From contig JBGSSV010000194.1 in assembly GCA_041736875.1 (NCBI GenBank), positions 1,993 through 65,992 of the forward strand: a stretch of DNA of 64,000 bases, in the 5' to 3' direction. The translations under genes were made by a program, and so were the position numbers. The notes beneath the pieces are model-generated. The model saw nothing but the letters and a program-made list of their open reading frames with translations, ran no database searches and had not been told where the DNA came from. This DNA comes from Chthoniobacterales bacterium. GTDB taxonomy: Bacteria; Verrucomicrobiota; Verrucomicrobiia; Chthoniobacterales; JACTMZ01. Shown here piece by piece: positions 24,839 through 61,346 of the stretch. Positions within the stretch are counted from its first letter, which is position 1. The number at the start of each line of letters is the position of its first letter.

Positions 24839-24893
24839 GGTGTTTTTCCAATAAACTGCTAGTTTGAAAGTTGTCTGTCCCCCTCCCCCGGAG

Positions 24894-44132: not shown

Positions 44133-46226
44133 TCAGTTCTCTCTCGCAGCCGCAGCTTCCGGCGGAGCGGCAGTAGCGTCCCCAATGCGGCCTTGGGCAT
44201 CGCCAAGCCGCCAGGCATGCAGCCCGCGAGAAACGTTGCGCAGGGCGTCATTCAACGTCTTCACCGGGCGGTCCACAACCGTGACCAAGCCGACGCCGAA
44301 ATTTTCCCCGTCGCCCCGTCCGGTGACCCCCTGATCGCCCCATTGGAACCAATGAGCACCCACGAAATTTGGGTGGCGCAGCGCATCCGACAAAAAGGCC
44401 TGCACAACATCGGCCTGGTTGCGCGCATCGGCCGCCCACGTCAACCCCGTGCCCAGATTGCCGTGATCCCGCATGCCGAAGTGGAATTCACTGATCAGCC
44501 ACGGCCGGTCCACCTCGGCACCCATGGAGAACCCATCGAGGTCGTGTTGGTAGATGTTGATAGAGAGGACGTCGCAATACCGCGAGGCAACCTTTCTGAC
44601 CATGGTGTTACGGACGTTGAATCGGTTGCCGAGATAGAGATGGTGGGGAAAAAATCGGTCCATGGCTGCACGGCAAAGCCCGAAATACTTGTCGGCAAAC
44701 GAAGCCAAAAAGTCCTCGAGATCCTGCTGGTAGGCTTTCTCGCCGCCCGGCCCCGGATTGGGCGTGATGGCGGTGAGATCAGCAAAGCTTGTGCCCCAGG
44801 CCTTGTTGAGCGCGGCGACATCTCCGTGACGCTCGCGCAAGAACTCGATCAAGGCGACGCGCGCGGGTGTCTGCTCGGAACTCTTGATGATCTCCTGCAC
44901 CAGTTTGGTGTCTCCCGTCCAATTGAGCTCGTTGTCCACAAAGATGCCGACCAGCCACGGGCTCGCCGCGTGGTCGGCGGCAAGAGACGCCATGCTTCTC
45001 TCCAGCGAGTCGGTGAAAGACTTGGAAAATGGATCGGCAATCTTATCGAGCGAACCCAACCGCGCCATCGCTGTGTGAATGATCAGGGTGTAGGGGACGC
45101 GTTGGGTCTGCAAAAGCTCCCTTCTCGACCATGCCCCGGCAGTGTTCACGCCCCAGTCCAACATCCGCGCCACCGTGACGTCGACGTGCTGCTTGAGCCA
45201 ATCGTCCCCGCCATACTTGCGCTTCAGATTATCCTCGTAGATCTCGACTTTCGGCTGACCTCGCATCGATTCGGGGAACAAGTGCTCGCGCCCTCGGACG
45301 ATCGATTCCGCCCCGTAGGACGCGCCGTTGACGCCGACGGACCAGAATAAGTCGCCCTCCGGATCGACGAACCACCACTTGCCATTCACTTTCTCGACCC
45401 GGAAAAAGCCTGTTGCCTCCAACTTGGGGCCACCGATCAGGCCCCCGAAGCGGCTGCGCTTGTCACCAAAGTTGGTCACGGTGGACGCGAAAGCGACATC
45501 CCTCCGGCCATCTTCCCGCAGTTCCTCCGCGCTGCGCACCTTGCCGGGCCAATCCAACCACCGCGCCTGGCCGAACTCGTCCACCATGGGAAGCTCGAAA
45601 GTGTCAAGCAACGCAGGATCCGTGCTGTAGTCACCAGAGCCCCGCGGACCCCCGATCTCGATGGTCTGACCGGCTTTTGCATTCCGCCAAGTGATCCGCA
45701 CAGTGACCCGCCGGATCGCGGCCGGATCCGCGGCAGCCCAATGAGAGCTATGTCCCCACGGGAAGGCGAAAAGCTGTCCGAGACGTTTCACGTGCGGGTG
45801 CTCGGAGGGCAGAGTCTGCCGAGCCAGGAGCGCGGTCATGTCCAGCTCTTCGTGTGCCCGGACCAGGAAACGGCCACTGGTGCCATAGCGCCATGCCTCT
45901 TCGGGGTTGCTCGTGGCCGCGATGAGCACATCAAGCTCTACAGCAGCGCCGTTCTTGATCGGAATCGCGATGTCCCGGAACGCTGATAAATCGAGCGGAG
46001 CGTCCTTGTAGGAAAATGTCACTGTCGCCCGCCCCGAAGGCTGAGTGGTCTCAAGGGCAACCGTTCCGCGAGGATCGTCTCCCGCAGTCGCGTCCATAGA
46101 AATTCGAGCCTCACCCGTCACTGCGGGCGCCAAGGCACTGACGGGCCCGGTGCTCACGAGTGCGATGACGAGCCCGCAGAGGAGAGGGCGGCTCAGTTTG
46201 GCGGTTGGGTCATTCCTCATAACCAT
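44133..46226 (-). CDS. secreted beta-sandwich + clan GH-A glycoside hydrolase, GH50/GH42-like (single-module paralog of 53152..57312)
   Basis: [53 protein letters not shown] and [26 protein letters not shown] are present. The family guess is from motif memory only. The start (46226 or 46220) overlaps the galE stop. Confidence 0.7.
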
Positions 46227-47187
46227 CCGGATGTGCCCTGTGCCAGTCCCACGCGCTCTGCACGATCATTTTCAAATCCGCGTAGCGCGGCGTCCAACCC
46301 AACTCCCGCCGGATCTTGTCGCTGCCAGCCACCAGCGTGGCCACATCGCCGGGACGGCGCTCCCCCATTTCCACGGGGATCGGGTGACCGCTGATCGCCC
46401 GTGCGGCATCAATGACTTCCTTGACCGAAAAGCCCAGCCCGTTGCCCAGATTGTAGACGCGGCTGCCGGAGTCAAGCGCCTCCAGCGCGAGAATATGGGC
46501 CTGCGCGAGGTCCACCACGTGGATGTAATCCCGCACACAGGTTCCATCCGGTGTGGCATAATCGCTGCCGAAGACCGTGACGTGCTCGCGCTGTCCGAGC
46601 GCCACCTGCAGGACGATGGGGATCAAATGTGTTTCCGGGTCGTGGTCCTCGCCTCGCTCAGGGGTTCCGCCGGCGGCATTGAAGTAGCGGAGACACGCGG
46701 AGTGCAGGCCGTGAGTTCTTTCCAACCAGTAGAGCATGCGCTCGATGATGAATTTCGACTCACCGTAGGGGCTTCCCGGGATGATCTTGGCCGTTTCATC
46801 GATCGGAATTTTTTCCGGATTGTCGAAGAGATTGGCCGTGGACGAAAAAATGAACCGCTTCACGCTCCGGTCGGCCGTCACCTGCAGGAGGTTCAATGCG
46901 TTGGTGATGTTCTCGCCGAGATAGAGGAAGGGCTTCTGCATGGACTCGCCCACCAGACTGCGTGCGGCAAAGTGCATGACCGCCTCGGGTTTGTGTTGCG
47001 CAAACACCTGCTCGACCTCGCCGATGTTGGCCAGATCCCCCTCCACGAATGCCGCCTTCGGATGCACCGCGGCGCGGTGACCCTGGCTCAAGTTGTCGAA
47101 CACCACGACATCGTGCCCGGCGCGGATGAGTTCAGCCGTTGCCGTGCTTCCGACATAACCAGCTCCGCCTGTGACCAAGACTTTCAT
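46210..47187 (-). CDS. galE: UDP-glucose 4-epimerase
   Basis: [14 protein letters not shown] is the Rossmann motif. The gene also has PYGESK (YxxxK), the typical ~325-aa length and a position next to galT. Confidence 0.92.
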
Positions 47188-47206: not shown

Positions 47207-48247
47207 TTATTTGTGCCGGTAATGTGTGGCCGGCAGTTCGCGCAGGCGTTGGGCCGCCTGCTCCGCTGTGAGATCGCGCTGGGCCTCCGCCAACATCTCG
47301 TAACCGACCATGAATTTCTTCACGGTGGCCGAGCGCAGCAGGGGCGGATAAAAATGCGCGTGCAACTGCCAGTGGGCGAGATCCCCCGCCTCATTCGGCG
47401 CACCGTGCCAGCCCATGGAATAGGGAAACGAGGTCTCGAAGAGGTTGTCGTAGCGGATGAGCAGCGCCTGGAGCACTTCGGCCAAGCTGGTGCGCTCCGC
47501 CTCCGTCAAGTCCGGCAGACGCAGAACATGACGGGTCGGCAGCAGCAGGATTTCATACGGCCAGAGTGCCCAAAATGGAACCACCGCGACCCAGTGCTCG
47601 TTGCTCACGACGACGCGGGTCTGATCTGCCATCTCGCGTTGCACGTAATCAAGCAGCAAGACAGATCCGTGCTCGTTCCGGTAAATCCGCTGCTCGCGGT
47701 CCTCGATCGCGATCTCGTTCGGCAGGAAATTGCCGGCCCACACCTGGCCGTGCGGGTGCGGGTTGGAGCATCCCATCACCCCGCCCTTGTTCTCGAAGAC
47801 CTGCACCCAGCGGTAACGCCCACCGAGTTCGGCGGTTTGCTCCGCCCAAACGTCCACCACCTTGCGGATGTCCGGCACGGCCATTTCGGCCACCGTCAAA
47901 TCGTGGCGCGGGGAAAAGCAGATGACGCGACACTCGCCCCGCACCGGATCGACGCGCAGCAGGTTGTCTTCCGCCCCCCTTGCTTCCGGCGTGTCGGGGA
48001 GCAAGGCCGAAAAGTCGTTCGTAAAGACAAAGGTGGATTCGTAATTCGGATTCACATCATCGCCCGAACGCTTGTTGCCCGGGCAGAGGTAGCAGGTGGG
48101 ATCGTAGGCCGGACGCCCGTCGTTGGCCGCCTTCTCCGTCTGGCCCTGCCACGGGCGCTTGGTGCGATGTGGTGAAACCAGGATCCACTCGCCGCGCAAG
48201 GGATTGAAGCGGCGATGCGGATGTTCATCCGAATGAAAGGTTGTCAT
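47207..48247 (-). CDS. galT: galactose-1-phosphate uridylyltransferase (class I)
   Basis: [30 protein letters not shown] (zinc site) and [10 protein letters not shown] (HPH active site) are present. Confidence 0.92.
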
Positions 48248-48272: not shown

Positions 48273-50459
48273 TCAGATCTCACTCCCGGCGAAATCGAAC
48301 CACATGGAAGCGTTAGCCGCCAATTCGACGGTGCGCTCCCGGCCCTCGCCGTCAGTGATCTGCGTGGTCTGGGGTCCGTTGGAGTTGTTGATCACGATGT
48401 ATTTGCCTGTCTTCGGGTAGGCGGCAATTTCCGTGTGGATATTCGTGGAGAACCAGCGCCTGGCCATCTCGTCTTCCCGACCCGAGGCGAACCAGATCGC
48501 GCGTTGCAACAGGCGGCTTTGCTCCGCGCCAAGTTTGAATCCGGCCAGATACACACCGCGTCCCTTCCCGTAACTGTTGGCAGCGATGGTGACGCTGCCC
48601 TCGCCATCCTTCGCCACAATCTCCGTCGTCCCGACGCAGGGATAGATCCGCTGCACATGTTTGCCCAGATCCGGCGCGGTGCCGTTGGAATCGGCCAGGA
48701 TGAAATGACTTTCCCTCACCTCTGTGGGGATCACCTTCTTGGTGTCGTTGGAGAGGCCGTATTCTTTTTGCACGCCGAGAACATCCCACATTTGGTAGAA
48801 AGCACCGCCGTTTTCCGCCGCCGTGGGGTCTAGGACACCCAAGAGGCCGCCCCCATTGTCCACAAACTCGCGGATGGCCGCGACGACGCGGGGGTCTTTC
48901 CAATTCTCGCCGCCGCTCCACGAGGTGCCAGCGTGGCCGAGATTGATGATGACACCCACATCCGCGGGAATGCCGTTCCGGATGTCGTCGAAATTGATCC
49001 ACAAGAGATCGAACGGCTGTCCCGAGAGCGACTCAATGATCGCGCCTTCCGGCCAGGATTGATCGTAACCCCAGGAACGGTCGCGGCCCCAGGCATTGAG
49101 GATCGCCACCTTGAAGGGCGCATTCTCGACGGGGGTGAAATCCGTGTGCTCGCAAATCCCGTAGAACTCCTTGGTTTGATGCTCGATGTAGTCGATGAAG
49201 TCCGGGAACTTGACGGCCAGATCCAAATACCCGCCGTAGCCGATGCGATGGACGAGTTTGCGGAGCATGGCCCGGCGGATCCACATCCAGTATTTCTTGC
49301 AGTCGGCCACCGGATCGCCACCCTCCTGAAACGTGGGTCGGTTGAGCAGATCGACCGCGAAGAAGTAGGGGTAAAGGCGGAGCTCTTTGACCAACTCGCC
49401 CGGCACGTCGGCGATGCGACGAACTTCGCGGCCATTGATGCAGGGCCCGATGATTCCGTCGAAGCCGATCTGCTGGAACTTCGGCTTGTAGGGTTCCGTG
49501 CCGATCCAGTGGTCGCAGTAGAAGAGCACCGCCTTCTTGCCGACCGCGTGAACCTGCTGAACGCACTGCTTGGCCCAATCGACCATGAACTCGTGGACGA
49601 ACTCGATCCAATCGAGGTAAGCCTTGCTGGGCACGCGGTCGGTCGAGCAGAGGTAGCCGTTGTCGATGATGTCATTCGGGCGCAAGCGATATCCCTTCTT
49701 CGCCTCGAATTCGTCAAGAGCCTGGGCGGACATGCAGTCGAGGTAGCCATACCAATCCTGATAGAGCGTCTCGTGCGCCGGGTTGGTGATGATGGGAAAT
49801 TGGTAGGCCATCGAGGTGAAGCGCACGTAGTCCGTGCCGGGATGGGTTTCCAGCCACTTGTCGAGGAACTTGGCCAGATGCTCCCGGGTCGCCTTCTTGC
49901 GCGGATCCACCCCGGACTGGTGCGGCTTGTCGCCCCAGTTGTTGGTGAGGTGATTATACATCGAGGTCGTTTCCCAGATCTGGAAGACGAGGAAATTGAC
50001 GCTGTAAACATTCCACTTGGCGCAGTTGCGCACCGTGACGATGCCGCGGGCGTAATCCCAGTCGGAGGTCGGCACGACCTCGCCGGTCGTGCGGTTGATC
50101 ACCTCCCAATACTTCTTGGCGTCGTTGATCTCATCGATCCGGTATTGCTGCGGCGAATACCGTGCGAGGATGTCGATCTGCATGGTGGCCTCCCGGGCCA
50201 CCTGCGGCGTGGAGAAGAGATACTTCTGCTGGTTGTCCTCGGGATGGGCACGGTTCCACTCCTGGTCCGCCCGGATCAGGCAAAGCGTGGAATAAATGTC
50301 ATAGCCGAGGCGGGTGATCGAGTCCGACAGGACGGTTCCATCCGAGTCGCGGATGGCATCCGCGCCCCAGCGCTTCGCGAGGTCCACGACCACGTCGTCC
50401 ATTCCTGCTTGGGCCGGCAGGGTGAACCCCCCTCGCTTTGCGTGTGTTTTTTCAGGCAT
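48273..50459 (-). CDS. GH112 beta-galactoside phosphorylase (1,3-beta-galactosyl-N-acetylhexosamine phosphorylase family)
   Basis: ATG at 50459 gives MPEKTHAKRGGFTLPAQAGMDDVVVDLAKRWGADAIRDSDGTVL. This matches the conserved N-terminus of lacto-N-biose/galacto-N-biose phosphorylases (G.FTLP...WGADAIR.SDGT). The length is ~728 aa. The tracked 808-aa ORF carries a spurious extension. Confidence 0.85.
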   Translation of the reverse strand: MPEKTHAKRGGFTLPAQAGMDDVVVDLAKRWGADAIRDSDGTVLSDSITRLGYDIYSTLCLIRADQEWNRAHPEDNQQKYLFSTPQVAREATMQIDILARYSPQQYRIDEINDAKKYWEVINRTTGEVVPTSDWDYARGIVTVRNCAKWNVYSVNFLVFQIWETTSMYNHLTNNWGDKPHQSGVDPRKKATREHLAKFLDKWLETHPGTDYVRFTSMAYQFPIITNPAHETLYQDWYGYLDCMSAQALDEFEAKKGYRLRPNDIIDNGYLCSTDRVPSKAYLDWIEFVHEFMVDWAKQCVQQVHAVGKKAVLFYCDHWIGTEPYKPKFQQIGFDGIIGPCINGREVRRIADVPGELVKELRLYPYFFAVDLLNRPTFQEGGDPVADCKKYWMWIRRAMLRKLVHRIGYGGYLDLAVKFPDFIDYIEHQTKEFYGICEHTDFTPVENAPFKVAILNAWGRDRSWGYDQSWPEGAIIESLSGQPFDLLWINFDDIRNGIPADVGVIINLGHAGTSWSGGENWKDPRVVAAIREFVDNGGGLLGVLDPTAAENGGAFYQMWDVLGVQKEYGLSNDTKKVIPTEVRESHFILADSNGTAPDLGKHVQRIYPCVGTTEIVAKDGEGSVTIAANSYGKGRGVYLAGFKLGAEQSRLLQRAIWFASGREDEMARRWFSTNIHTEIAAYPKTGKYIVINNSNGPQTTQITDGEGRERTVELAANASMWFDFAGSEI

Positions 50460-51582
50460 GTTGGTTTTCTGATTCCGGGTGATTTCGCTTTTCAAAAACG
50501 GTGAGATCCCAACCATCGTGCCAGTGAATCGTGAAGCCTCGGTCTGCTTGCCACGAAACCGGAAGCCACACATAACGACCGTCGATCGCATTGGCGGGGG
50601 TCCAAATATCGAACAGGGCGATGAACGCATCGGCGAGGCCATGGACCTTCTGCACGTAAGTGCTCTGCGCTCCGAAGGTCTTCTCCGGGCCGAACCCATT
50701 CTGCGGGTTCACCCCCCGGCAAGGGTTCTCCATCTCGTGCCAGGGGCCCATGATGTTTTGCGCGATGGCGCAGCGGGCCGCGTTGGGGTCCCAACCGGTG
50801 CAACCGCTGGCAATCAGGTAGTAAAATCCATCACGCTTGAAGACCGCCGCGGCTTCCATGTAGCGGCCCTCGAAGAGGCGGACGAAGCGCCCGGCCGGGG
50901 AAAGATAATCTGCCTCAAGTTCCGAGATGTGAAGAGTGCTATTCTCCTCGGAGGAAAAGATATGATACGCCTTGCCGTCCTCATCCACAAAGAGGTTCAT
51001 GTCGCGGGCCATCTGGCCGTGGGGCAGGTCGCGGGCGAAGATGTTACTTTGGATGACGTTCAGTCGCGGCAGCGGATGGTCGCCAGTGAACCCATCGCCG
51101 ACCAAGCCCGGGGAATGTAGCGTAGGGGAATCATTCAGCGGATAGGCCCCCGCGTTGGGACGAAAGGCGCGAAGGTAGGTGAACGGTCCGGTCGGCCGGT
51201 CAGCCACGGCAACCCCGCTGCTGGCGGTGTCATAGCCGCAGCCCTTTTTTTCCAGGTGAAACCACATGACAAACTTCCCGGTGGACGAGTTGAAAATCAC
51301 CTTGGGGCGTTCGAGAATGCAGCCGACTTCGATGTCATGGCCGGGCTCCGTGCTGACCGCGAGGGCAATGCCTTCGTCCTTCCAATCGTAAAGATCCGGG
51401 GAGGAATAAGCATGCACGCCGACCATGGCCCGATTGCCCGCGTCGCCTTCGATCTTGTGCTCCCCGAACCAGTAGTAAGTCCCCTCGTGGAAAAGCAGCC
51501 CACCCCCGTGGGCGTTGATGGGGACACCGTTGGTGTCATTCCAGGTTTTTCCCGGCTCAAACATGCGAAGCGACGTGCTCAT
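50452..51582 (-). CDS. cytoplasmic GH43 hydrolase, exo-beta-1,3-galactanase-like
   Basis: PINAHGGGLLFHEGTYYWFGEHK and GKFVMWFHLE are the GH43 blocks. No signal peptide is present (MSTSLRMFEPGKTWND). The 3' end overlaps the GH112 start by 8 nt. Confidence 0.75.
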   Translation of the reverse strand: MSTSLRMFEPGKTWNDTNGVPINAHGGGLLFHEGTYYWFGEHKIEGDAGNRAMVGVHAYSSPDLYDWKDEGIALAVSTEPGHDIEVGCILERPKVIFNSSTGKFVMWFHLEKKGCGYDTASSGVAVADRPTGPFTYLRAFRPNAGAYPLNDSPTLHSPGLVGDGFTGDHPLPRLNVIQSNIFARDLPHGQMARDMNLFVDEDGKAYHIFSSEENSTLHISELEADYLSPAGRFVRLFEGRYMEAAAVFKRDGFYYLIASGCTGWDPNAARCAIAQNIMGPWHEMENPCRGVNPQNGFGPEKTFGAQSTYVQKVHGLADAFIALFDIWTPANAIDGRYVWLPVSWQADRGFTIHWHDGWDLTVFEKRNHPESENQHA

Positions 51583-51641: not shown

Positions 51642-53162
51642 TCAGATTCCAGCCCGCAAGCGCTCGAGCTCCCTGCGGTTATTCTCCGCCTTTTCCCTCG
51701 TGAGGGGATAGAACTTGAGAAGGACGAAACACAGGATGGCCGGACCGGCAGCGCCCAGGCACATGGCCAGGCGCATGTTAAGGTAGGTTTCCGGGCTCTG
51801 CGATGACGCACCGGGATCGAAGCCGATGGCGTTGAGGAAAACGCCGATCATGACGAAGCTGATGGCAAACGAGGCTTTCATGAACCAGCCGTAGATCGCC
51901 CCGAACATGCCTTCTCGCCGACAGCCATTCTTGATCTCGTCATCGTCACACACGTCGGCAATCAGCGACTGGCCAAGAACACCCACGCCGATCCAGAACA
52001 GGCCGCCAGTCAAAGGATCGAGCCAAATGAGCGACTGAAAGACCGCGACGAGCGAACCGCCCACAGCCTCCAGACTCGACCAGCTCAGCGCGGTGTCGAA
52101 GCGACCGGGGCGATAGACAAACCAGCGGATGGCCGCGTTGAGGATCATCATGCCGTAGATGAACATGAAGCCGCGGATCTTGGTCATTTTCCCGGTCAAC
52201 CAGACGATCAAGGGGATGCCGAGAACGCCGACCAAAGCATAGCCGACGGTCACAATCAGCTTCCACTGCGTTCCCACCGCTACGTCGCCATTCGAGAGGT
52301 AGTAGATCAGAAGATACCAGTCCATGTTGCTGGCAAACATGCCGGCAATGATGGTGAAGACGGCGATGGCACAGAGAATCGCGAACGCCCGGTTTTGCAG
52401 GCACATCCGGACGGATGACCAGAAACGATCCCTCTTCCCGTGGTGTTCCTTGATGTTGATTTCATAGTTGCGCTCTCTGCCGAAGAAGGCGGGGAGCATG
52501 CCGAAGAGCGTCATGCCGATTCCGCCGTAAACGGCTGCGGACATGCGGATGCCTTCCATTTTCTCCGCCGTGGTCAGGTCGCCGGATTCGGCGTAGCCGT
52601 ATTTCCAGGCGATGAACATCAACGAGAAGGGAATCAGGCCCATGTAGGTCATCTCGCCCAAGCGGTTCCAGAATGTGACGTAGCCCTGCACGATGGTGCG
52701 CTCGTCGTAGTCCGGCGTCATCTCGTAGGTCAGGGCGATGAAGGGCACCGAGAAGATCGTGTAGGCGGTATAGAACAGAATGCTGGTCGTAAGGAACCAA
52801 GCCAGCTTTCCGGCATCGCTCCACTCCATCGGGATCATCCAGATTGATGCAAAGGTCAGGCCCATGAGAATGGCGCCGCAGAAAATGAACGGTCGACGGC
52901 GACCGAAGCGCGATCTGAAGTTGTCCGAGATATTCCCCATGATGGGGTCGGTGATGGCATCCCACAGGAGCGGGATGGCCAGCACGATGCCCACCCAGAA
53001 GGCATTGATGCCCAGAATCATGTTCAGCACCGCCTGTCCGGTCGTGCGAACGCTTTGGTTGCCCAGTGAGACGGTGAATCCCCCAGTGCCTACCGACAAC
53101 TTCTCGGCGATGCTCAGTTTCCCGCTGTTTGGCGCCGGTGGCTGATGTGGGCTATTGTCCAT
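51642..53162 (-). CDS. glycoside-pentoside-hexuronide (GPH):cation symporter, MFS
   Basis: ATG at 53162 gives MDNSPHQPPAPNSGKLSIAEK. DAITDPIMGNISDNFRSRFGRRRPFI is the GPH signature, and about 12 hydrophobic segments follow. Confidence 0.85.
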   Translation of the reverse strand: MDNSPHQPPAPNSGKLSIAEKLSVGTGGFTVSLGNQSVRTTGQAVLNMILGINAFWVGIVLAIPLLWDAITDPIMGNISDNFRSRFGRRRPFIFCGAILMGLTFASIWMIPMEWSDAGKLAWFLTTSILFYTAYTIFSVPFIALTYEMTPDYDERTIVQGYVTFWNRLGEMTYMGLIPFSLMFIAWKYGYAESGDLTTAEKMEGIRMSAAVYGGIGMTLFGMLPAFFGRERNYEINIKEHHGKRDRFWSSVRMCLQNRAFAILCAIAVFTIIAGMFASNMDWYLLIYYLSNGDVAVGTQWKLIVTVGYALVGVLGIPLIVWLTGKMTKIRGFMFIYGMMILNAAIRWFVYRPGRFDTALSWSSLEAVGGSLVAVFQSLIWLDPLTGGLFWIGVGVLGQSLIADVCDDDEIKNGCRREGMFGAIYGWFMKASFAISFVMIGVFLNAIGFDPGASSQSPETYLNMRLAMCLGAAGPAILCFVLLKFYPLTREKAENNRRELERLRAGI

Positions 53163-56100
53163 AAAGATTTCTTCCGCAGGCCGCCATGGCGCGGACCAGT
53201 TCGGCGTTGGGGCCGTCCGCGACATCATAGAGGCCGACGTCGAAATTCTCGCCATCGTAACGACCGGCGGCGCTCTGGTCACGCCACTGGAACCAGTGGG
53301 CGCCGACAAGTTTGGGATTTTTCACGGCTTCAGCGATGAATTCCTTGAGCAACCGCCCCTGCTGCACCGCATCTTGCGCGCTGCGCAAGCCGCCGCCGAG
53401 GTTGTTGCCCGAGACGTCGGCGAAATGGAATTCCGAGATGAGGACGGGCTTGTCGGTTGCGCCATACTGTTTGAGCTCGGGATGATAGGAGTAAATGTTG
53501 GCGCTGATCACATCGGCATGCCGGGCCAGCGCGGCGATGACCTCGGATGGACCGGAGTTCATCCGGCAACCGAGATATAGCACGTTGGGCGAGTAGGCGG
53601 TGAGTTCTTCCCGGACCATGCTGAACATGGTGTCGGCAAACAATGTGGCCAAGGCCGAGCAATCGGCGGCATCGGCCTCCGAAAACAAATCGGGGTCGGT
53701 TGTTTTCAACAGATCATCCCAACTCCCCAGCGTCGTCTTCCACGCTCGGTTCAGCGCCGCGATGTCGCCGTGCTTTTTCTTGAGCCATCCGATGAAAACC
53801 TTCCGCGCCTTCGAACCGGTGGTGCTGTGACCGAAGATGGCGCCGACCAGAAGCCGGGCGTCGTTCTTCCAATGCAGCTCGTTGTCCACGAACGCGCCGA
53901 GGCACCAGGGGTCGTTGGCAAACTTGACGGGATAACCTGCCAACGCCTTGCGCAAACTGAGGCGGGTTTCCGGGTTGAACGGGTCGGGCAGTTTAGGAGC
54001 AGCCTCGGGATACACGTAATGTAGCATGGCCACATAGGGCACTTCCCGGCGCTCGATGATGGCGTTGTCCGACCACGCACCGATGGTGTTGAGGTGGGTG
54101 TATTTGAGACGCTCGACATCCTGGTCGACCTGCTGCTTTTCCCAGCCCTCGCCGTATTTTCGCCATAGGTTGGCCCTCGTGAAATCGAAATGGGGCACGT
54201 CGGGCCGGGCAAGAAAGTTTTCCTCCACCTCGAGCTTCGTGTGGAAGCGCCCGAATACCGGGTCGTCCGCCGCAGGCAGATCTTGGAAGACCGCCTGATC
54301 CCGCTCGGTGGGCGTCTGGCCGGCGAAGTCAATGCCGATGCAGTTGGCGCCAAACGACCAGAAAAGCCGCCCCTCCGGATCCACAAACCACCATTTACCT
54401 TTCACCTTCTCCGAGCGGAAAAAGCCGGTCGCCTTGAGCTGGGGACCGGCCTGCCAGCCGCCATACTTATTGAGGTCGCGGGCCGGTCCGATTTCCCGGA
54501 CCAGCGCGTCTTCGACCTTTGCTTTCGCTTTGATGTCGTCATCGGAGAGGACCTTCCCCGGCCAGGTGCGGTGGAGGTATTGACCGTAACGATCAAGGAT
54601 CGGGAGGACATCGGCCAGGCTCTCATCCGTTTCTTGCAGTGGAGCCATGGGGCCGAGTTCGAACGCATGCTCCTCGGGAGTGGAGCAGGTGATGACAAGA
54701 TCCCTCACATCCGCCGGATCGAAGGTGTGCCAGTGGCGGAAGTAACCGTTCGGCCGACCGGACATGCGGAGGTAAGCCGGATGCTTCGCGCGATAGTCGG
54801 CCGTGCGTTGGAAGGCCACGCCCAGCGGCAGCGTCTCCCCAGATTTGATCACGGTGCGGCCAAGGGCGGACTTCGAAAACGTGGTCGCGCCGTCGTTGCG
54901 AGCCATCACGTCCAGAACAAGCTCCGTTGGTCCCGTGTTTTTCACTATCAGGCCGAGCACGCGGATATTCTGCATGTTCCAGGCCTCGCCGTGGGCCGGC
55001 TCCAGCACGAGGCGAAACGGACCTTGGCCGCGGATCTCCTGAACTTCCTTGCCTGGGGAGACTTTCACTCCCTCGCTTTTTTCAATGCGGTAGGGAATCG
55101 ACTCTGAGCCCGGGGCGCCAACTTCACCGCGCCAGAGCTTCTCGAGCGATTCCAGCAGGGTGGACGACTTGTCCGTTCCGAGCTCATACATGCGCTCGGA
55201 CATCGCGCGCGAGGCGCGGGTGATTTCCGGATACGGCGTGTCGGTCACATCCACGAAGCCTATCTGGTAGTTCTCCCCCGAGCTTCCTCCGGGTGACACC
55301 GGGCGGGCGGCGGCCGATTGGTCGGGGAAGGCGAACCAGTGCGTGCCGACGATATTCGGGTGCTTGAGGCCCGACAGCACGTAGGCCACGTAGGCACGAC
55401 TGCGCTGGATCTGGTCGCCGACCGGCCACAACCCCACGCCGGGCACCCCTCGGTCCGGAGCCCCGAAGTGGAATTCGGTTTCCATGCAGGGCATGTCGCC
55501 TGCCTTGGAAACCTTGGAGCCGGAGAGTGGTTCGTAGCTGTTGCCGCTGAGGACATCCACATACTTGGCCGATTCTTCGTAAACTTCTTGGTCGGCCTTG
55601 TGCTTGCGGGACCCGAGGTAGAGGTGGTTCGGCAAGGCCTCGCGCATGGCTTCGCGACAAAGCCGGTAGTAGGTGCCAGAGATGAGGCGCTTCAGGTCCG
55701 AGAGGTCGGCTTTGAAACCCTCGGTCTCGTTTTCGGCATCCGGCAGCGCCCCGATCGCTTGCCACGAGTCATAGGATGTTCCCCACGCGCTGTTGAGTTT
55801 TTTGATCGTCCCGTGCTTGTTTTTGAGCCATTCCACGGAAGCGATTCGTGCGGGCTGTTCGGGGCCGCGGAGGAAGGCATTCTGCACGAAGGGTTCGTTC
55901 CAATAGATCTCGTTGTCGATGAAGACGCCGAGAACCCACGGGTTGTCCTTGTCCGGAACGATCCGGCGCAGTCCCTCGACCACGCCGGCTTTGAAGTCCT
56001 TGGCGAACGGATCGACCACCTTGTTGCCGAGGGGCGAACCTTTGCCACCCAGATGGAGAATGGGGGTGAACGGCGTGCGTTGGTCCGCCATCAGCCCGGC

Positions 56101-57312
56101 ATCCGACCACGCACCGATGGTGTTCATGCCCCACTGACGAAGCCTGCGATGGACGCGGTCGCGCGCCGGCTCCTGCCACGAGGGACCGAAGGTGCGGGCA
56201 AGGTTCGCAACCATGAATTGCATCTGGTTGTTCTTGATGGCCCCGCCGAAGAGCGGATCACCCTCCGCGGGCAGCCAGGCGAAGAGGGATTCGCGGCCCG
56301 GGATCGGCGTGACCTGTTCGAAGCCGATGCTGTTTGCACCGTGCGAGAAGAAGAGCCGCCCCTCGGGATCGATCAGCCACCATTTGCCGTCCACCTTCTC
56401 CACGCGGAAGAACCCGGTGGCCTGCAACTGCGGACCGTTAGCCCATCCTCCGAAACGATTGAACGAGCGGGGACCTTGGTCATTTCTGGCTGCGGCCAAC
56501 TCGGCCTCGTGCCGCTGCTTCAGTTCGCCTTCGTCATGCAGTTTCCCCGGCCAGTCCACTTTGCGGACCTGGCCGAACTCGTCAAGGTAGGGCAACTCCA
56601 ACCGGTCCGCATTCGCCTCGGCACCGTAAGGGTAGGCGAGGCTGATCACGAAGTCGTCCAGCGCCAAGGTGGAGGACGTGGACTGGATGACCAACCGGCA
56701 GGCGATGACCTTCGAGGGATCGAACGGTTTCCAGTGGTCCCGGTGGCCGTTGGGCTTGCCGCTTTGCTGGTTGAAGATCGGCGGCGTATCGTTCAGGTCC
56801 TTCGCGCGCTGGAAGGGAAAACCCAGCGTGGCCCGCTCGCCCGGCATGACGAACGCCTGCGACGGAGCGCTGTTGGCCCAGTCGAGCGCGCCCTTGTTGT
56901 CCAAACGGCCACGAATCCAGACCAAGCCCGGGCCGTTGTTGACGAAATCAATGCGGACAAAGCTGTAAGCTGAAACATCCCAGGAGCCCGAGGTCGGCGA
57001 CAGGATGACGTTCGCCCCCTGCTTCGGCATCTCGCCGGACAGCCGGAACGAGTCCTTGTCGCCCGGAGCGAAGCTCAAACCATCCGGACCTTTGCCCGTG
57101 ACATCCGTCAAGGCGCGCACCGGCGCGAGAAGATCCTCGATGGGTGTGGCGGAGGCTTGGCCGGATACCGCACCCGCAGCTCCCTCCCCGCTCGCCTCCT
57201 TCGGAGTGACCGCTTGGGAGGCAAGGACGAAACAAAAGCAACAGCCAAGAACAACGAGGAAGATGACGGCGGAAATGCGGAAGACAGACAGACGGAGGAA
57301 CGGATAGAACAT
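53152..57312 (-). CDS. membrane-anchored or secreted tandem double glycosidase: two complete beta-sandwich + GH-A (GH50/GH42-like) modules in one ~1386-aa chain
   Basis: ATG at 57312 gives MFYPFLRLSVFRISAVIFLVVLGCCFCFVLASQA; the tracked TTG at 57351 is an alternative. Module 1 has [37 protein letters not shown] and METEFHFGAPDRG. Module 2 has [50 protein letters not shown] and GAHWFQWRDQSAAGRYDGENFDVGLY. Confidence 0.8.
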   Translation of the reverse strand: MFYPFLRLSVFRISAVIFLVVLGCCFCFVLASQAVTPKEASGEGAAGAVSGQASATPIEDLLAPVRALTDVTGKGPDGLSFAPGDKDSFRLSGEMPKQGANVILSPTSGSWDVSAYSFVRIDFVNNGPGLVWIRGRLDNKGALDWANSAPSQAFVMPGERATLGFPFQRAKDLNDTPPIFNQQSGKPNGHRDHWKPFDPSKVIACRLVIQSTSSTLALDDFVISLAYPYGAEANADRLELPYLDEFGQVRKVDWPGKLHDEGELKQRHEAELAAARNDQGPRSFNRFGGWANGPQLQATGFFRVEKVDGKWWLIDPEGRLFFSHGANSIGFEQVTPIPGRESLFAWLPAEGDPLFGGAIKNNQMQFMVANLARTFGPSWQEPARDRVHRRLRQWGMNTIGAWSDAGLMADQRTPFTPILHLGGKGSPLGNKVVDPFAKDFKAGVVEGLRRIVPDKDNPWVLGVFIDNEIYWNEPFVQNAFLRGPEQPARIASVEWLKNKHGTIKKLNSAWGTSYDSWQAIGALPDAENETEGFKADLSDLKRLISGTYYRLCREAMREALPNHLYLGSRKHKADQEVYEESAKYVDVLSGNSYEPLSGSKVSKAGDMPCMETEFHFGAPDRGVPGVGLWPVGDQIQRSRAYVAYVLSGLKHPNIVGTHWFAFPDQSAAARPVSPGGSSGENYQIGFVDVTDTPYPEITRASRAMSERMYELGTDKSSTLLESLEKLWRGEVGAPGSESIPYRIEKSEGVKVSPGKEVQEIRGQGPFRLVLEPAHGEAWNMQNIRVLGLIVKNTGPTELVLDVMARNDGATTFSKSALGRTVIKSGETLPLGVAFQRTADYRAKHPAYLRMSGRPNGYFRHWHTFDPADVRDLVITCSTPEEHAFELGPMAPLQETDESLADVLPILDRYGQYLHRTWPGKVLSDDDIKAKAKVEDALVREIGPARDLNKYGGWQAGPQLKATGFFRSEKVKGKWWFVDPEGRLFWSFGANCIGIDFAGQTPTERDQAVFQDLPAADDPVFGRFHTKLEVEENFLARPDVPHFDFTRANLWRKYGEGWEKQQVDQDVERLKYTHLNTIGAWSDNAIIERREVPYVAMLHYVYPEAAPKLPDPFNPETRLSLRKALAGYPVKFANDPWCLGAFVDNELHWKNDARLLVGAIFGHSTTGSKARKVFIGWLKKKHGDIAALNRAWKTTLGSWDDLLKTTDPDLFSEADAADCSALATLFADTMFSMVREELTAYSPNVLYLGCRMNSGPSEVIAALARHADVISANIYSYHPELKQYGATDKPVLISEFHFADVSGNNLGGGLRSAQDAVQQGRLLKEFIAEAVKNPKLVGAHWFQWRDQSAAGRYDGENFDVGLYDVADGPNAELVRAMAACGRNLYGQ

Positions 57313-57474
57313 CAGCTTCGAGGGGACGAGGGGGGCTTTCGCAGTTGACAATGGAACATAATGTCAGACAAATATCAAACAGATTGTAGCAGCTTCGTTT
57401 GCGCCGAAAAAAACCGTCACCGAGGCCTGTTGCAGTTAGTGTTCTAAAGCCCCCCCTTCGATTGAACCACGCTC

Positions 57475-60400
57475 ATGATTGAAGTTCAAAACCAACGGCG
57501 CCCCCTTTTTTCGGCGGGCGCCCTCCTCGGAGCGTCTCTCCACTGCTTCGCAACCCACACTGCATTCGCTGAAATGTCCAACGCCGAAACCACCGCCTCC
57601 CCCACCCGGCCGAACATCATCATCATCAACGCCGACGACCTCGGATTCGGCGACCTGGGCTGCTACGGGGCGGACGGCATTCCGACGCCCAACCTCGACC
57701 GCATGGCGGCGGAAGGCGTCCGCTTCACCGATTTCTACGCCACGGCCGCGACGTGCACACCCTCGCGCTACAGCCTCCTGACCGGCCGCTATCCGTGGCG
57801 GAACCCGAAGGCCAAGATCTTGGCCGGCGATGCCCCGATGATCATCGGCAAAGACGAACTCACCCTCCCTGCCGCGCTGAAACGCGCCGGCTACACCACG
57901 TCCGTCATCGGCAAATGGCACATCGGCCTCGGCGACGGCACAATCGATTGGAACGGCGACATCCGCCCCTCCCCGAATGACGTCGGCTTCGACGAATCGT
58001 TCATCATGGCCGCGACGGCCGACCGTGTGCCTTCGGTGTATATCCAAAACGGACGGGTAGTGAACCTTGACCCCGCCGATCCGCTCGAAGTGTCTTACGC
58101 CAAAAGCAACCCGTTCCCCGACATGCCCACTGGGCTCACGCATCCGGAGTTGCTCACCATGCGCCACAGCGACGAACAGCACGCGGAAACGATCGTCAAC
58201 GGCGTCCCACGCATCGGGTTCAGCCGTGGCGGCAAATCGGCCACCTGGGACGACGCGACCATGACTGATGTGTTCCTGCAACAGACAAAGGACTTCATCA
58301 CCCGCCAGAAGGATTCTCCGTTTTTCCTCTACATGGCCCTGCACCAACCGCATGTCCCGAGGCTTCCATCGAAGCGCTTTGCGGGCACCTCGGAGAAAGG
58401 ACCTCGCGGCGATGTGATCATGGAGATGGATTGGATGGTCGGCGAAGTGCTCGACCACCTGAAGAAGTCCGGGCTCGATAAAAACACGATCGTCGTCTTC
58501 ACCAGCGACAATGGGCCGGTCTTGGATGACGGCTACGTGGACGGATCGGAGGAGCGCAACGGATCCCACCGCCCCGCTGGCCCGCTCCGCGGCGGAAAAT
58601 ACAGCTTCTTCGACGCAGGTGCCCGTGTCCCGACGATTGTGTGGGCGCCCGGCATGGCCAAGCCCGGCGAGTCCGATGCACTTCTCAGCCAAGTGGATTT
58701 CCTCGCCAGCTTCGCGCACCTTGTCGGCCAGGACCTCAAGCCTTCGGAAACAGCCGACAGCCAGCAACTGGCCGACGCCCTGCTCGGGAAATCCGAGAAG
58801 GGCCGCGACAACCTCGTCACCGAGGGATTCGGTGCGAAGACGCTCCTGCGCGAGGGACCCTGGGTTTACATTCCCCCCTACCCCGGTCCCCGTCTCTTTG
58901 GCGACAAGAACGTCGAGTCCGGCAATTCAAAGGTCCCACAGCTCTACGATCTTTCCTCCGACATCGGGCAAACCAAGAACGTTGCCCCCGAACACCCGGA
59001 AAAAGTCGCGGCCATGAAGGCCCTGCTGCAATCGATCCGCGCGCAGCCCACCAAGCCCGCGCCGGAAGCCAGCGCCGCCCGACCGCCGAACATCCTCTTC
59101 ATCCTGTGCGACGACCTTGGGATCAACGACCTGCATTGCTACGGGCGCAAGGACCACCATACGCCCCACCTCGACCGTTTGGCCGCGCAGGGAACGCGCT
59201 TCACGTCCGCCTACGCCTCCCAGGCTATTTGCTCGGCCTCACGTGCCGGCCTTCTCACGGGGCTCAACCCGGCGCGACTGCACCTTACGGACTGGTTGCC
59301 CGGACGCTCCGATGCGGTATCACAGCGGGTGCTCCATCCGGAGATCATGATGAACGTGCCGCTTTCGGTCAAAACCCTGCCGCGCTATTTCCGGGAGGCC
59401 GGCTACGCCACGGGAATGGTCGGAAAATGGCACATCGGCAAAAGCCCGGGGCCGGCCGAGCACGGGTTCGACTTTGTTTATCATCCCAGCGACGGCAAAA
59501 ACACCACGCCCTCGGAAACGGAAGGCGGCAAGGCGGAATACGAACTGACCCGCGAGACGATCGGGTTCATCGAAGCGAACAAGGACCGCCCGTTCGTGGC
59601 CTATCTCGCCCATTACACACCCCACATTTCCTACACCGCCAAACAGGACCTGATCGACAAGAACGCGCAGGCCTTCGAGCCGGTTTATGCGGCGCTGATC
59701 GAGACCTTGGACGATTCGGTGGGGCTCCTGCTCAACAAGCTCGACGAACTAGGACTGGCCGATAACACCATCGTCGTCTTCACCTCGGACAACGGCGGCC
59801 TCCATGTGCCCGAAGGCGGCCACGTCCGCGTGACCCACAACACTCCCTTCCGGGCCGGCAAAGGCCACACCTACGAGGGCGGCCAGCGGATTCCGCTCAT
59901 CGTGCGCTGGCCCGGCCATGTGCCAGCCGGCCGCGTGGTTGATGCGCCCGTCAACAATGTGGACTGGATCCCCACGCTGCTGGAAATGGCCGGAACGACC
60001 CCGCCAGACGGCTTCGACGGCGTCAGCTTCGCCCATGGGCTCACGGGAGGAGCGTTCCCGACAAGGCCGCTTTTCTGGCATTATCCGCACTACACCAACC
60101 AAGGCGGACGCCCCAGCGGCGTCATGCGGGATGGGCGGTGGCTGCTGGTGGAATACTACGACGAGGACAGAACGGAACTCTACGACCTCTCGGCGGAGTT
60201 GGAGCAAAAACAAGACCTGGCCGCCCGCGAACCAGCGCGCGTGGCCACCATGAAGACTGCACTCGCGGACTGGCGCCGGGCCAACGATGCCCAGCTCAAT
60301 ACGCCCAACCCCGAAAACGACGAGGAGGCCTTCCGCAAACTTTACATCACCGTCGACTCCAGCACATTCGATCCCACAACGGCTGACGAGGCCGCGTGGG

Positions 60401-60495
60401 CGAAGATGCAGGATTGGCGCCGGGAGATGAATCGTATGGCCTCGGAGAAGCGAAAGCATGATCAGCCGGAGGGCGGCTCTGCCGGCGCGCCATAG
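57475..60495 (+). CDS. tandem double sulfatase (two complete Cys-type sulfatase domains, 1006 aa)
   Basis: Signal-like N-terminus LFSAGALLGASLHCFATHTAFA. Domain 1 has PNIIIINADDLGFGDLGCYG and ATCTPSRYSLLTGRYP. After the linker QPTKPAPEASAARP, domain 2 has PNILFILCDDLGINDLHCYG and AICSASRAGLLTGLNP. Confidence 0.88.
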   Translation: MIEVQNQRRPLFSAGALLGASLHCFATHTAFAEMSNAETTASPTRPNIIIINADDLGFGDLGCYGADGIPTPNLDRMAAEGVRFTDFYATAATCTPSRYSLLTGRYPWRNPKAKILAGDAPMIIGKDELTLPAALKRAGYTTSVIGKWHIGLGDGTIDWNGDIRPSPNDVGFDESFIMAATADRVPSVYIQNGRVVNLDPADPLEVSYAKSNPFPDMPTGLTHPELLTMRHSDEQHAETIVNGVPRIGFSRGGKSATWDDATMTDVFLQQTKDFITRQKDSPFFLYMALHQPHVPRLPSKRFAGTSEKGPRGDVIMEMDWMVGEVLDHLKKSGLDKNTIVVFTSDNGPVLDDGYVDGSEERNGSHRPAGPLRGGKYSFFDAGARVPTIVWAPGMAKPGESDALLSQVDFLASFAHLVGQDLKPSETADSQQLADALLGKSEKGRDNLVTEGFGAKTLLREGPWVYIPPYPGPRLFGDKNVESGNSKVPQLYDLSSDIGQTKNVAPEHPEKVAAMKALLQSIRAQPTKPAPEASAARPPNILFILCDDLGINDLHCYGRKDHHTPHLDRLAAQGTRFTSAYASQAICSASRAGLLTGLNPARLHLTDWLPGRSDAVSQRVLHPEIMMNVPLSVKTLPRYFREAGYATGMVGKWHIGKSPGPAEHGFDFVYHPSDGKNTTPSETEGGKAEYELTRETIGFIEANKDRPFVAYLAHYTPHISYTAKQDLIDKNAQAFEPVYAALIETLDDSVGLLLNKLDELGLADNTIVVFTSDNGGLHVPEGGHVRVTHNTPFRAGKGHTYEGGQRIPLIVRWPGHVPAGRVVDAPVNNVDWIPTLLEMAGTTPPDGFDGVSFAHGLTGGAFPTRPLFWHYPHYTNQGGRPSGVMRDGRWLLVEYYDEDRTELYDLSAELEQKQDLAAREPARVATMKTALADWRRANDAQLNTPNPENDEEAFRKLYITVDSSTFDPTTADEAAWAKMQDWRREMNRMASEKRKHDQPEGGSAGAP

Positions 60496-60506
60496 GCATT
60501 CCTCTC

Positions 60507-61346
60507 ATGAACCTCACCCGAAGAAAGTTCCTTGGTCTTTCCGCTGCAGCCGCCGCCGCAATTCCGATACACGCGTTGGCTCAAGAGTCCGGCCAGGCCG
60601 GACCGTCGGGCTCGAAGAAAAAGGGCCTCGGCCTCGGGGCGAAAAATCCGTTCTGGCCCGGCATACTCACGGACCTCCGCTGCCGCTGGGTTTACACCTG
60701 GATGGGCAACGTGCCGCCCGACCTGCCCGAGGGGACAGGCTTCATTCCCATGATCCGCAGCGGCGGCATCACCAATACTGCCGCGATCGCCAAGGTCGCG
60801 GATCAAGCCAAGGCGAACAACATCACCGAGCTGCTTGGCCTCAACGAACCCGACGCAGCGAAGCAGGACGACATGACGGTCGAAGGCGCCCTCGAGGCCT
60901 GGCCGCTGCTGATGGAGACGGGTCTGCGACTCGGCAGTCCGGGCTGCGTCCATCCCGACAAGGATTGGATGGTCGAGTTCATGGCCGGCGTGAAAGAGCG
61001 AGATCTTCGGGTCGATTTCGTCTGCGTGCATTCGTATGGCGGCCCGAATCCGGAGGCGCTGGTCCAGCGGCTGGAGAAAGTGCACAAGATGTATGATCGC
61101 CCGCTCTGGATCACGGAGTTCGGTGTGGGCGACTGGGCGGCCAAGAGCGTCGAGGAGAACCAGCACTCGCCGGAGACGGTCCAGCGTTTCATGGAAAAAG
61201 TCCTGCCCATGCTCGACGACCTCGATTTCCTCGAGCGCTACGCGTGGTTTCCGTCCATGCCCGACAGCGGCCCTCTCGGCACCAGCGCGCTTTTCGACCA
61301 CAATGGAGAGTTGACCCCGCTGGGCGAAATCTACCGCGACGCATGA
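60507..61346 (+). CDS. Tat-signal GH128-like (Glyco_hydro_cc) glycoside hydrolase
   Basis: MNLTRRKFLGLSAAAAAAIPIHALA is a twin-arginine signal. KKKGLG...WVYTWMG, LLGLNEPD and PLWITEFGVGDW are the catalytic-core blocks. Confidence 0.75.
   Translation: MNLTRRKFLGLSAAAAAAIPIHALAQESGQAGPSGSKKKGLGLGAKNPFWPGILTDLRCRWVYTWMGNVPPDLPEGTGFIPMIRSGGITNTAAIAKVADQAKANNITELLGLNEPDAAKQDDMTVEGALEAWPLLMETGLRLGSPGCVHPDKDWMVEFMAGVKERDLRVDFVCVHSYGGPNPEALVQRLEKVHKMYDRPLWITEFGVGDWAAKSVEENQHSPETVQRFMEKVLPMLDDLDFLERYAWFPSMPDSGPLGTSALFDHNGELTPLGEIYRDA

Follow-up and report, generated by a model that had tools for sequence, protein, structure and literature searches.

A 64,000-nucleotide stretch of DNA from a Chthoniobacterales bacterium (GenBank contig JBGSSV010000194.1, positions 1,993 to 65,992 of the forward strand; called the window here) carries a gene in which two complete catalytic modules, both assigned to glycoside hydrolase (GH) family GH50, are joined head to tail. 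The gene occupies positions 53152..57312 on the minus strand, encodes 1386 amino acids plus a stop codon, and is the first of a co-directional cluster of 15 genes. On balance, its product is probably a secreted bifunctional retaining enzyme, formed by fusion of two GH50 lineages, that belongs to a sulfated β-galactan pathway with a conserved gene cassette. The genomic context points to a non-agar substrate, namely a sulfated β-(1,3)-galactoside or galactan, and the two modules presumably divide the labor of releasing a product that is then imported.

Two GH50 modules in one polypeptide

A minus-strand open reading frame (ORF) with a TTG start (53152..57351) encloses the 1386-amino acid protein, which begins at the ATG at 57312. 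The same start is used in public gene calls (P0001, 100% identical, 1386 amino acids). A three-module profile matches this protein twice, at residues 24-719 (1191 bits) and at residues 720-1386 (1106 bits). Because the two envelopes meet at residues 719/720, the module boundary is placed near nucleotide 55155, close to the position of 55120 given in the original prediction, which was made from the sequence without database searches. The N-type module (55156..57312, minus strand, residues ~24-719) is predicted to have a carbohydrate-binding module (CBM)-like β-sandwich, an LPYLDEFGQ linker and a (β/α)8 barrel. The C-type module (53155..55155, minus strand, residues 720-1386) is predicted to repeat this order with an LPILDRYGQ linker. 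When the halves are compared to each other by BLASTP, they are 34.7% identical over 655 columns (E 6e-114); a self-BLAST of the whole protein returns the identity match only. These two lines of evidence bear out the proposal that one protein of ~1386 amino acids contains the same unit twice, and each of the motifs cited for it (LPYLDEFGQVRKVDWPGK, LPILDRYGQYLHRTWPGK, ATGFFR.EKV.GKWW..DPEG, DNE and EFHF) is located in the sequence.

The inter-module junction (55078..55191, minus strand, residues ~708-745) is short and conserved among orthologs, with the pattern MYELG.D.S..LLESLE.LW. The LLESLE.LW segment is followed by a short variable stretch, and the orthologs compared have no long low-complexity linker between their modules. 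A signal peptide is predicted at the N-terminus (57214..57312, minus strand, residues ~1-33; MFYPFLRLSVFRISAVIFLVVLGCCFCFVLASQ) and may include a lipobox, VLGC. As with all signal peptides described here, it was judged by eye. The tandem orthologs P0002-P0018 likewise open with hydrophobic residues and then an AxA-like site, and the fused protein is presumably exported.

The assignment to GH50, one of three families put forward for testing in the original prediction, rests on similarity of the catalytic domains to solved GH50 structures and on the presence of an Asn-Glu acid/base pair and a Glu nucleophile typical of clan GH-A. In a sequence search of the PDB, the fused protein matches Aga50D (4bq2, E 3e-73), 5z6p (3e-68), 6xj9 (1e-66) and BpGH50 (5t3b, 4e-15). 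A stand-alone paralog encoded further along the cluster matches Aga50D (4bq2) with an E value of 7e-76, and the three-module profile matches the same chain with an E value of 2e-114 over residues 170-745. General domain collections are far less informative. Pfam reports no more than a weak GH42 signal, no NCBIfam model matches these GH50 proteins, and the GH50 modules of the window are without the Pfam Agarase_CBM (PF17992) signature.

AlphaFold2 models of the two halves, derived from 16-row alignments, have low confidence (mean predicted local distance difference test values of 58 for N and 68 for C) and served for a coarse fold match only. With Foldseek, the low-confidence C model matches 5z6p (E 1e-38) and 4bq4 (E 5e-37) over its full length, and the best matches of the low-confidence N model are also GH50 structures (E 2e-28). 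The top matches of both models (5z6p, 4bq2/4 and 6xj9) cover ~750 alignment columns with template modeling scores of 0.4-0.6. These matches of poor models are consistent with a CBM-like β-sandwich plus a barrel in each half.

The active site of Aga50D includes Asn533, Glu534, Glu695, Phe742, Arg752 and Glu757 (PMC11079163). In an alignment of 209 GH50-type modules, the N module aligns Glu468 (55909..55911, minus strand; motif FIDNE) with Glu534 and Glu613 (55474..55476, minus strand; motif TEFHF) with Glu695. The corresponding residues of the C module are Glu1145 (53878..53880, minus strand; motif FVDNE) and Glu1294 (53431..53433, minus strand; motif SEFHF). The Glu of the DNE motif is the position that is mutated to Gln in the 4bq4 chain. 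Each of these four glutamates is invariant in its module type (20/20 N modules and 20/20 C modules). More broadly, equivalents of N533, E534, E695, R752 and E757 show no change in any of the 20 N modules, the 20 C modules or both solo-type sequences, the type represented by the stand-alone paralog. The F742 equivalent is kept in every one of these sequences except for one C module that has Tyr. All three modules in the window retain the full set of six residues. Each half of the fusion would therefore be expected to act as an independent retaining hydrolase that uses the double displacement mechanism of clan GH-A, with Glu468 and Glu1145 as putative acid/base residues and Glu613 and Glu1294 as putative nucleophiles.

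One module might instead be a non-catalytic relic or a carbohydrate-binding helper that leaves hydrolysis to its partner. Pseudo-enzyme domains are common in multi-domain carbohydrate-active enzymes (CAZymes), and in the window the N module has a 6-residue insertion between the Arg and a GEN motif (ARPVSPGGSSGENY), near the active site. This explanation is nevertheless very hard to credit, because six active-site residues are kept in both modules across 20 orthologs (59-85% identity), apart from the single Phe-to-Tyr change in a C module. The halves are also similarly conserved among orthologs (68-85% identity for N and 61-85% for C), and thus neither looks like a decaying copy. The earlier claim that both halves keep the acid/base DNE and the EFHF nucleophile is therefore upheld and extended by four further positions, and the loss of catalytic residues from one half, which had been named as a way in which it could fail, is not found on alignment.

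The chance that an assembly or gene-calling artefact joined two neighboring genes is negligible, and nothing was found in its favor. The ORF is uninterrupted, the junction sequence is conserved, and the identical 1386-amino acid protein was assembled from three separate sequencing runs (SRR28170473, SRR28170467 and SRR28170466). A further 17 clusters, defined at 90% identity (P0002-P0018; 59-81% identity; ~1330-1390 amino acids), have the same two-module plan. They derive from several studies and pipelines, on contigs of up to 301 kb, and the metagenome-assembled genomes (MAGs) that contain them are labeled Terrimicrobiaceae (the closest, at 77%), Opitutales, Kiritimatiellae, 'Ca. Methylacidiphilales' and Verrucomicrobia. 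By our own reading of the isolate labels, several of these hosts apparently derive from non-marine samples, soda-lake sediment among them. The artefact that the original prediction had raised against itself can thus be set aside.

When 1.84 billion representative proteins were searched exhaustively with a profile, 6112 family members scored E<=1e-3, of which 2141 reached E<=1e-30. Within the best 150 matches, a pair of full modules placed head to tail occurs in one 50%-identity cluster (P0018). Other layouts with two GH50 domains also occur. P0021 and P0022 are GH50-sulfatase-GH50 proteins, P0131 has two barrels within 2723 amino acids, and P0015 and P0016 place a sulfatase ahead of the N-C pair. 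A literature search for tandem GH50 proteins or for operons combining GH50 with GH112 found nothing relevant.

Covalent linkage to sulfatase domains is widespread among GH50-type modules, with layouts that include sulfatase-GH50, GH50-sulfatase-GH50 and sulfatase-GH50-GH50 (P0021-P0045, P0015/P0016 and P0019). Fusions to GH43, metallophosphoesterase, esterase and β-helix domains are found as well.

The relationship between the two halves was examined with a neighbor-joining tree built from 209 modules over 510 columns, with 200 bootstraps. N modules form one clade together with P0019 and P0020, with 100% bootstrap support. C modules form another, also with 100% support, which includes eight single-module genes (48-61% identity) from Planctomycetota, Pontiella, Sedimentisphaerales, Puniceicoccaceae, Thermoguttaceae and Opitutaceae. 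No bootstrap replicate recovers N and C as sisters (0/200), a result that rules out a recent internal duplication. Because the two types occupy separate, fully supported clades that are never sisters, and because the C-type also occurs as a single module, the fused protein is the result of joining two old GH50 paralogs. The next larger clade around the N-type consists mainly of sulfatase-fused modules (P0021-P0045). The C-type was probably the original partner of the surrounding cassette, and in one subset an N-type module related to the sulfatase-fused proteins became fused in front of it.

A conserved cassette and a third GH50

From the fusion onward, the cluster encodes a glycoside-pentoside-hexuronide (GPH)-family symporter of the major facilitator superfamily (MFS), a GH43_24 enzyme, a GH112 phosphorylase, GalT, GalE and the stand-alone ('solo-type') GH50. 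It continues with a solute-binding protein, a GH158-like protein, GH31, GH29, a second GH158-like protein, a secreted GH43_24, GH35 and a sulfatase-PA14 protein. The genes from the fusion to the solo GH50 are separated by overlaps or gaps of -17 to +59 nucleotides.

The symporter gene (51642..53162, minus strand; Pfam MFS_2 2e-65; TIGR00792 gph) has a start that overlaps the GH50 stop by 11 nucleotides. It is followed by a GH43_24-type exo-β-1,3-galactanase gene (50452..51582, minus strand), whose product is predicted to be cytoplasmic as it is without a signal peptide. This protein matches PDB entries 6eug (7e-115) and 3vsf (4e-60), and matches 7bys, annotated as 'Galactan 1,3-beta-galactosidase', at 7e-42. 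The next gene (48273..50459, minus strand) encodes a GH112 phosphorylase of the β-1,3-galactosyl-N-acetylhexosamine type (Pfam Lact_bio_phlase 5e-164; PDB 2zus/3wfz ~1e-162), which scores 803 bits against the TIGR02336 equivalog model with its cut-off of 560. GalT (47207-48247) and GalE (46210-47187), both on the minus strand, are the Leloir enzymes that take up galactose-1-phosphate (Gal-1-P).

Beyond the solo gene, a lone solute-binding protein (42669-44030, minus strand) has no adjacent permease genes. Two paralogous GH158-like proteins (35771-37120 and 41251-42672, minus strand) match 9oro and 6pal with E values of 1e-22 to 4e-35, and have no Pfam or NCBIfam match. GH158 is a β-1,3-glucanase family, yet these two genes sit in a galactose-oriented operon. 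The second GH43_24 protein (34635-35756, minus strand; 7bys 9e-71) has a signal-peptide-like N-terminus. The differing N-termini of the GH43_24 paralogs therefore suggest one extracellular and one cytoplasmic exo-β-1,3-galactanase. Both GH43-like neighbors had been candidates for GH117 neoagarobiose hydrolases, an assignment that would have spoken for agar, and PDB comparison places them instead among the GH43_24 exo-β-1,3-galactanases.

The solo GH50 gene (44133..46226, minus strand) encodes 697 amino acids with a signal-peptide-like N-terminus and lies 6.9 kb from the fused gene. Its product is 33.4% identical to the N half (E 1e-103) and 34.0% identical to the C half (E 3e-105) by BLASTP. 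Alignment to Aga50D marks Glu433 (44928-44930, minus strand) as the putative acid/base and Glu580 (44487-44489, minus strand) as the putative nucleophile. Solo-type orthologs form ~48 clusters at 49% identity or more and also start with signal-peptide-like sequences. In the tree, the window's solo module pairs with that of a Terrimicrobiaceae MAG (100% bootstrap). Among related loci, the solo gene lies downstream of GalE in L077 and of GH112 in L004, where tblastn finds no match to GalT or GalE and only ~100 nucleotides separate GH112 from the solo gene. The third, diverged copy described by the original prediction at a distance of 7 kb is therefore real, and relatives preserve its synteny with the fusion. 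The accompanying suggestion of three specificities acting on one polymer is consistent with the deep divergence of the three modules, with their type-specific loop lengths (see below) and with their conserved co-occurrence in one operon.

The cassette was compared across loci L004-L012, L014, L015 and L076-L078. The order GH50, MFS, GH43_24 or GH42, and GH112 recurs in L004, L077, L078 and the P0007 contig, followed by GalT/GalE and a solo GH50 where these are present; most loci with the tandem protein have GalT/GalE nearby. Six other loci (L006, L009, L012, L014, L015 and L076) have GH50, MFS and GH112, with a ~2 kb gene of unassigned family between the last two. This core order is seen with single-module C-type genes as well as with the fusion, and it spans Verrucomicrobiota, Kiritimatiellota and Planctomycetota. 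Thirteen related loci have the symporter. In every case its gene directly follows the C-type GH50, and its identity is 71-89% in all of them but L012, where it is 49%. GH112 is conserved at 76-90% identity, compared to 45-81% for GH50. That the symporter and GH112 are much better conserved than GH50 suggests either horizontal spread or very strong constraint. In L078, GalK and GalM also adjoin the cassette.

Sulfatases are recurrent neighbors. In the window, a 1006-amino acid protein with two sulfatase domains (57475..60495, plus strand; Pfam Sulfatase 1.5e-117 in two stretches) is divergently oriented ~160 bp from the fusion. Upstream of the fusion, L077 and L078 each have at least one divergently oriented sulfatase, the P0007 contig has one in the immediately adjoining position, and P0015/P0016 carry a sulfatase joined to the N-terminus of the fused protein itself. 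The two-domain sulfatase of the window is a second tandem fusion of same-family domains, adjoining that of GH50.

Across the window as a whole, genes for carbohydrate-active proteins include those for three GH29 fucosidases, a GH95-like protein, a SASA esterase, GH35, GH31 and several sulfatases. Two adjacent paralogous genes (60462-61346 and 61440-62285, plus strand) match Pfam Glyco_hydro_cc and are GH128-like. A third Glyco_hydro_cc domain is present in a 1740-amino acid protein (24864-30086), together with F5/8 type C, ricin-B and six He_PIG/Big_9 repeat domains. Between two blocks of glycoside hydrolase genes are PATR-repeat (autotransporter-associated) proteins of 1146 and 1366 amino acids and small prepilin-type N-methylation proteins (8260-11700, 14501-18601 and 18686-20134, minus strand), and similar genes flank L079 and the P0007 contig. 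Finally, the region 21505-23260 contains overlapping opposite ORFs of 459 and 485 amino acids plus a 249-amino acid ORF; these candidate genes, on both strands, have no Pfam match.

Candidate substrates and a proposed pathway

Membership in GH50 alone cannot fix the substrate. The family is polyspecific, with agarase, β-galactosidase and β-1,3-glucanase activities (PMC11079163) as well as β-glucuronidase activity (bioRxiv 10.64898/2026.05.19.726164). The gene content of the locus supplies further evidence, as described below.

Agar is the traditional GH50 substrate, and both modules might be β-agarases (EC 3.2.1.81) with different product sizes that act on red-algal agar or porphyran after desulfation. 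The best matches among solved structures are exo-β-agarases, most characterized GH50 enzymes are agarases (PMC11079163), and sulfatases adjoin the fusion. Several observations make this explanation decidedly improbable. An agarase clade defined by Aga50D and ten PF17992-positive proteins is recovered as monophyletic in 100/100 bootstraps; all three window modules (N, C and solo) fall outside it and are 32-36% identical to its members. In Aga50D, the segment between DPEG and W461 carries the tunnel end-block V350-A375 with D362, and partial loss of the end-block in AgaB50 has been linked to its endo/exo action (PMC8551122). This segment comprises 136-141 amino acids in agarases, compared to 82-84 in N modules, 99 in C modules and 75 in solo modules, as counted from an alignment that is unreliable in the shortened loop region. 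Its length is fixed within each module type and is 37-66 residues below that of agarases. The spacing between the two catalytic glutamates is also 11-17 residues shorter in the window modules. Neither in grouping with the characterized gammaproteobacterial β-agarases nor in possession of a long end-block segment do the window modules fit GH50_1, the agarase subfamily proposed in PMC11079163.

The surroundings of the fusion are also unlike those expected for agar use. No GH117, GH16 or GH86 match is present among the ORFs scanned across the window, including the 15 genes of the cluster, and no anhydrogalactose catabolic genes were recognized among the matches, although no search was aimed at them. 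The GH43-like genes encode GH43_24 enzymes, and the hosts are MAGs of Terrimicrobiaceae, Opitutales and Kiritimatiellae that in several cases are apparently non-marine by label. Of the substrates that the original prediction proposed for assay, agarose, porphyran and fucoidan are consequently unlikely, whereas sulfated galactan is plausible.

The composition of the operon argues for a sulfated β-1,3-galactan, because the partner enzymes act on non-reducing β-(1,3)-galactose and on Gal-1-P, and because sulfatases are both fused and adjacent to GH50 modules. The context that supports β-1,3 linkages or galactose includes two GH43_24 enzymes, GH35, GH112, GalT, GalE, two GH158-like and two GH128-like proteins, and GalK/GalM in L078. 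A protein encoded elsewhere, P0020 (positions 10001-13087 of locus L079), has an N-type GH50 module fused to a GH43_24-like exo-β-1,3-galactanase domain, and therefore provides an independent 'Rosetta stone' tie between the N-type clade and β-1,3-galactan. The neighbors of the P0020 gene include GH29, GH16, SASA and sulfatase genes.

These components suggest a pathway. Outside the cytoplasm, in the extracellular or periplasmic space, sulfatases and the N, C and solo GH50 modules would cut a sulfated β-galactan. The likeliest polymer would contain galactose in β-1,3 linkage, for instance a type II arabinogalactan-like polysaccharide or a green-algal or microbial sulfated galactan. Small β-galactosides would enter the cell through the GPH/MFS symporter. 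In the cytoplasm, GH43_24 or GH42 could hydrolyze the imported galactosides, GH112 could phosphorolyze them to yield Gal-1-P, and GalT and GalE would pass this product to glycolysis.

Several points weigh against this pathway. Characterized GH112 enzymes act on Gal-β1,3-N-acetylhexosamine (HexNAc) or Gal-β1,4-Rha, and galactobiose is not known to be among their substrates. A GH50 enzyme with the Asn-Glu pair should leave Gal or Glc at the new reducing end, and not HexNAc. Given this reducing end and the preference of GH112, the GH50 product would not be an evident GH112 substrate. GH158 and GH128 are β-1,3-glucanase families, which keeps a glucan substrate in play. In addition, the tree of GH50 modules leaves out the characterized non-agarase members VadG925, PaBglu50A, Fsa16295Glu and the glucuronidases.

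The glucan question can be put directly. If the fused enzyme resembled PaBglu50A and Fsa16295Glu, it would cut laminarin- or curdlan-type glucans alongside its GH158- and GH128-like neighbors. GH50 β-1,3-glucanases do exist (PMC11079163; bioRxiv 10.64898/2026.05.19.726164), and the region encodes both the two GH158-like proteins (9oro/6pal, E 1e-22 to 4e-35) and two Glyco_hydro_cc proteins. However, the genes tied most tightly and widely to these GH50s (GH112, GalT, GalE, GH42 and GH43_24) are galactose-specific, no GH3, GH1, GH17, GH16 or GH94-type β-glucoside enzyme was seen, and fused or neighboring sulfatases would have no role on laminarin. A glucanase is improbable on this evidence.

The preference of GH112 would also fit a different target, sulfated and fucosylated glycans with Gal-β1,3-GlcNAc or Gal-β1,3-GalNAc units, such as mucin O-glycans, type-1 chains or glycosaminoglycan-like exopolymers. 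The GH50 modules would then serve as endo- or exo-β-galactosidases that free fragments ending in lacto-N-biose (LNB) or galacto-N-biose (GNB) for import and cleavage by GH112, as in the bifidobacterial GNB/LNB pathway. In keeping with this, the GH112 protein scores above the equivalog cut-off of TIGR02336, which describes 1,3-β-galactosyl-N-acetylhexosamine phosphorylase, and matches the Bifidobacterium longum LNB phosphorylase at ~1e-162. GalT and GalE follow GH112 as in lnpACD, and the three GH29, GH95-like, SASA esterase, GH35, GH31 and sulfatase genes of the window would suit such glycans. Yet the window ORFs that were scanned include neither an N-acetylhexosamine kinase nor any gene for HexNAc catabolism, and the presence of GalK/GalM beside the cassette in L078 suggests free galactose as a co-product. 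A cytoplasmic GH43_24 lies inside the operon, and in P0020 an N-type GH50 is joined to a domain of this type. The conserved Asn-Glu pair, from what is known of clan GH-A, would also favor a sugar with a 2-OH in the -1 subsite. A host- or mucin-type substrate is rather unlikely when these points are combined, and a sulfated β-1,3-galactan is still the preferred reading.

A bolder form of the sulfated β-1,3-galactan proposal is speculative and rather doubtful as a whole. In this form, the fused enzyme and its cassette would represent an undescribed pathway that is common in the Planctomycetes-Verrucomicrobia-Chlamydiae (PVC) superphylum. Its non-agarase GH50 enzymes would have new specificities, for example, an exo-β-1,3-galactobiohydrolase paired with a galactanase that tolerates sulfates or branches. 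GH112 would phosphorolyze a substrate new to its family, for example β-1,3-galactobiose, and the covalent N-C fusion would behave as an obligate heterodimer resembling the homodimers of GH50 crystal structures.

Significance and known systems

GH50 has long been treated as an agarase family, and its polyspecificity is only now being recognized. The locus offers three GH50 subclades, together with informative partner genes, in one conserved operon; these are inexpensive targets for finding new GH50 and possibly new GH112 activities. The N-C fusion also acts as a natural 'Rosetta stone', which implies joint action of the N- and C-type enzymes. Definition of these activities would help to explain how PVC bacteria of soil, sediment and gut use sulfated galactans. 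No established principle is challenged, as multi-catalytic CAZymes and fusions of GHs to sulfatases both have ample precedent. What is new is an architecture within the known GH50 family that resides in a conserved operon; it is useful for enzyme discovery and unsurprising in principle.

The closest structural relatives are Aga50D (Sde_1176-type, from Saccharophagus degradans; PDB 4BQ2-4BQ5), AgWH50C (5Z6P) and PfGH50B (6XJ9), whose plan of CBM-like β-sandwich, linker and (β/α)8 barrel is probably that of the window modules as well. The Glu534/Glu695 pair of Aga50D, along with Asn533, Phe742, Arg752 and Glu757, is common to the window modules. In contrast, these modules are 32-37% identical to the known enzymes, belong to another clade, fall 37-66 residues short in the tunnel-closing segment of Aga50D, have 11-17 residues fewer between the catalytic glutamates, and are without PF17992. 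In the known structures of the family, each chain has one module and is a monomer or part of a homodimer or homotetramer (PMC11079163), whereas the window protein has two modules per chain. The β-galactosidase VadG925 from Victivallis vadensis derives from the PVC superphylum, the same group as the fusion, and is a single-module enzyme. The β-1,3-glucanases PaBglu50A and Fsa16295Glu and the GH50 β-glucuronidases likewise represent other specificities outside of the agarase clade, and all are single-module. Fsa16295Glu is also without a CBM-like domain.

The GNB/LNB operon of Bifidobacterium combines lnpA (GH112), lnpB (NahK), lnpC (GalT) and lnpD (GalE) with an ATP-binding cassette (ABC) transporter. 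The window resembles it in grouping GH112, GalT and GalE downstream of a transporter. It differs in that no NahK is found among the scanned window ORFs, a GPH/MFS symporter takes the place of the ABC transporter, and the unit includes GH50s, GH43_24 or GH42, and sulfatases.

Multi-catalytic CAZymes, such as the GH9-GH48 protein CelA of Caldicellulosiruptor, provide a more general precedent in which several catalytic domains for one polymer are joined in one polypeptide. The window protein follows this principle, but does so with a direct head-to-tail pair of full GH50 modules that come from different subclades.

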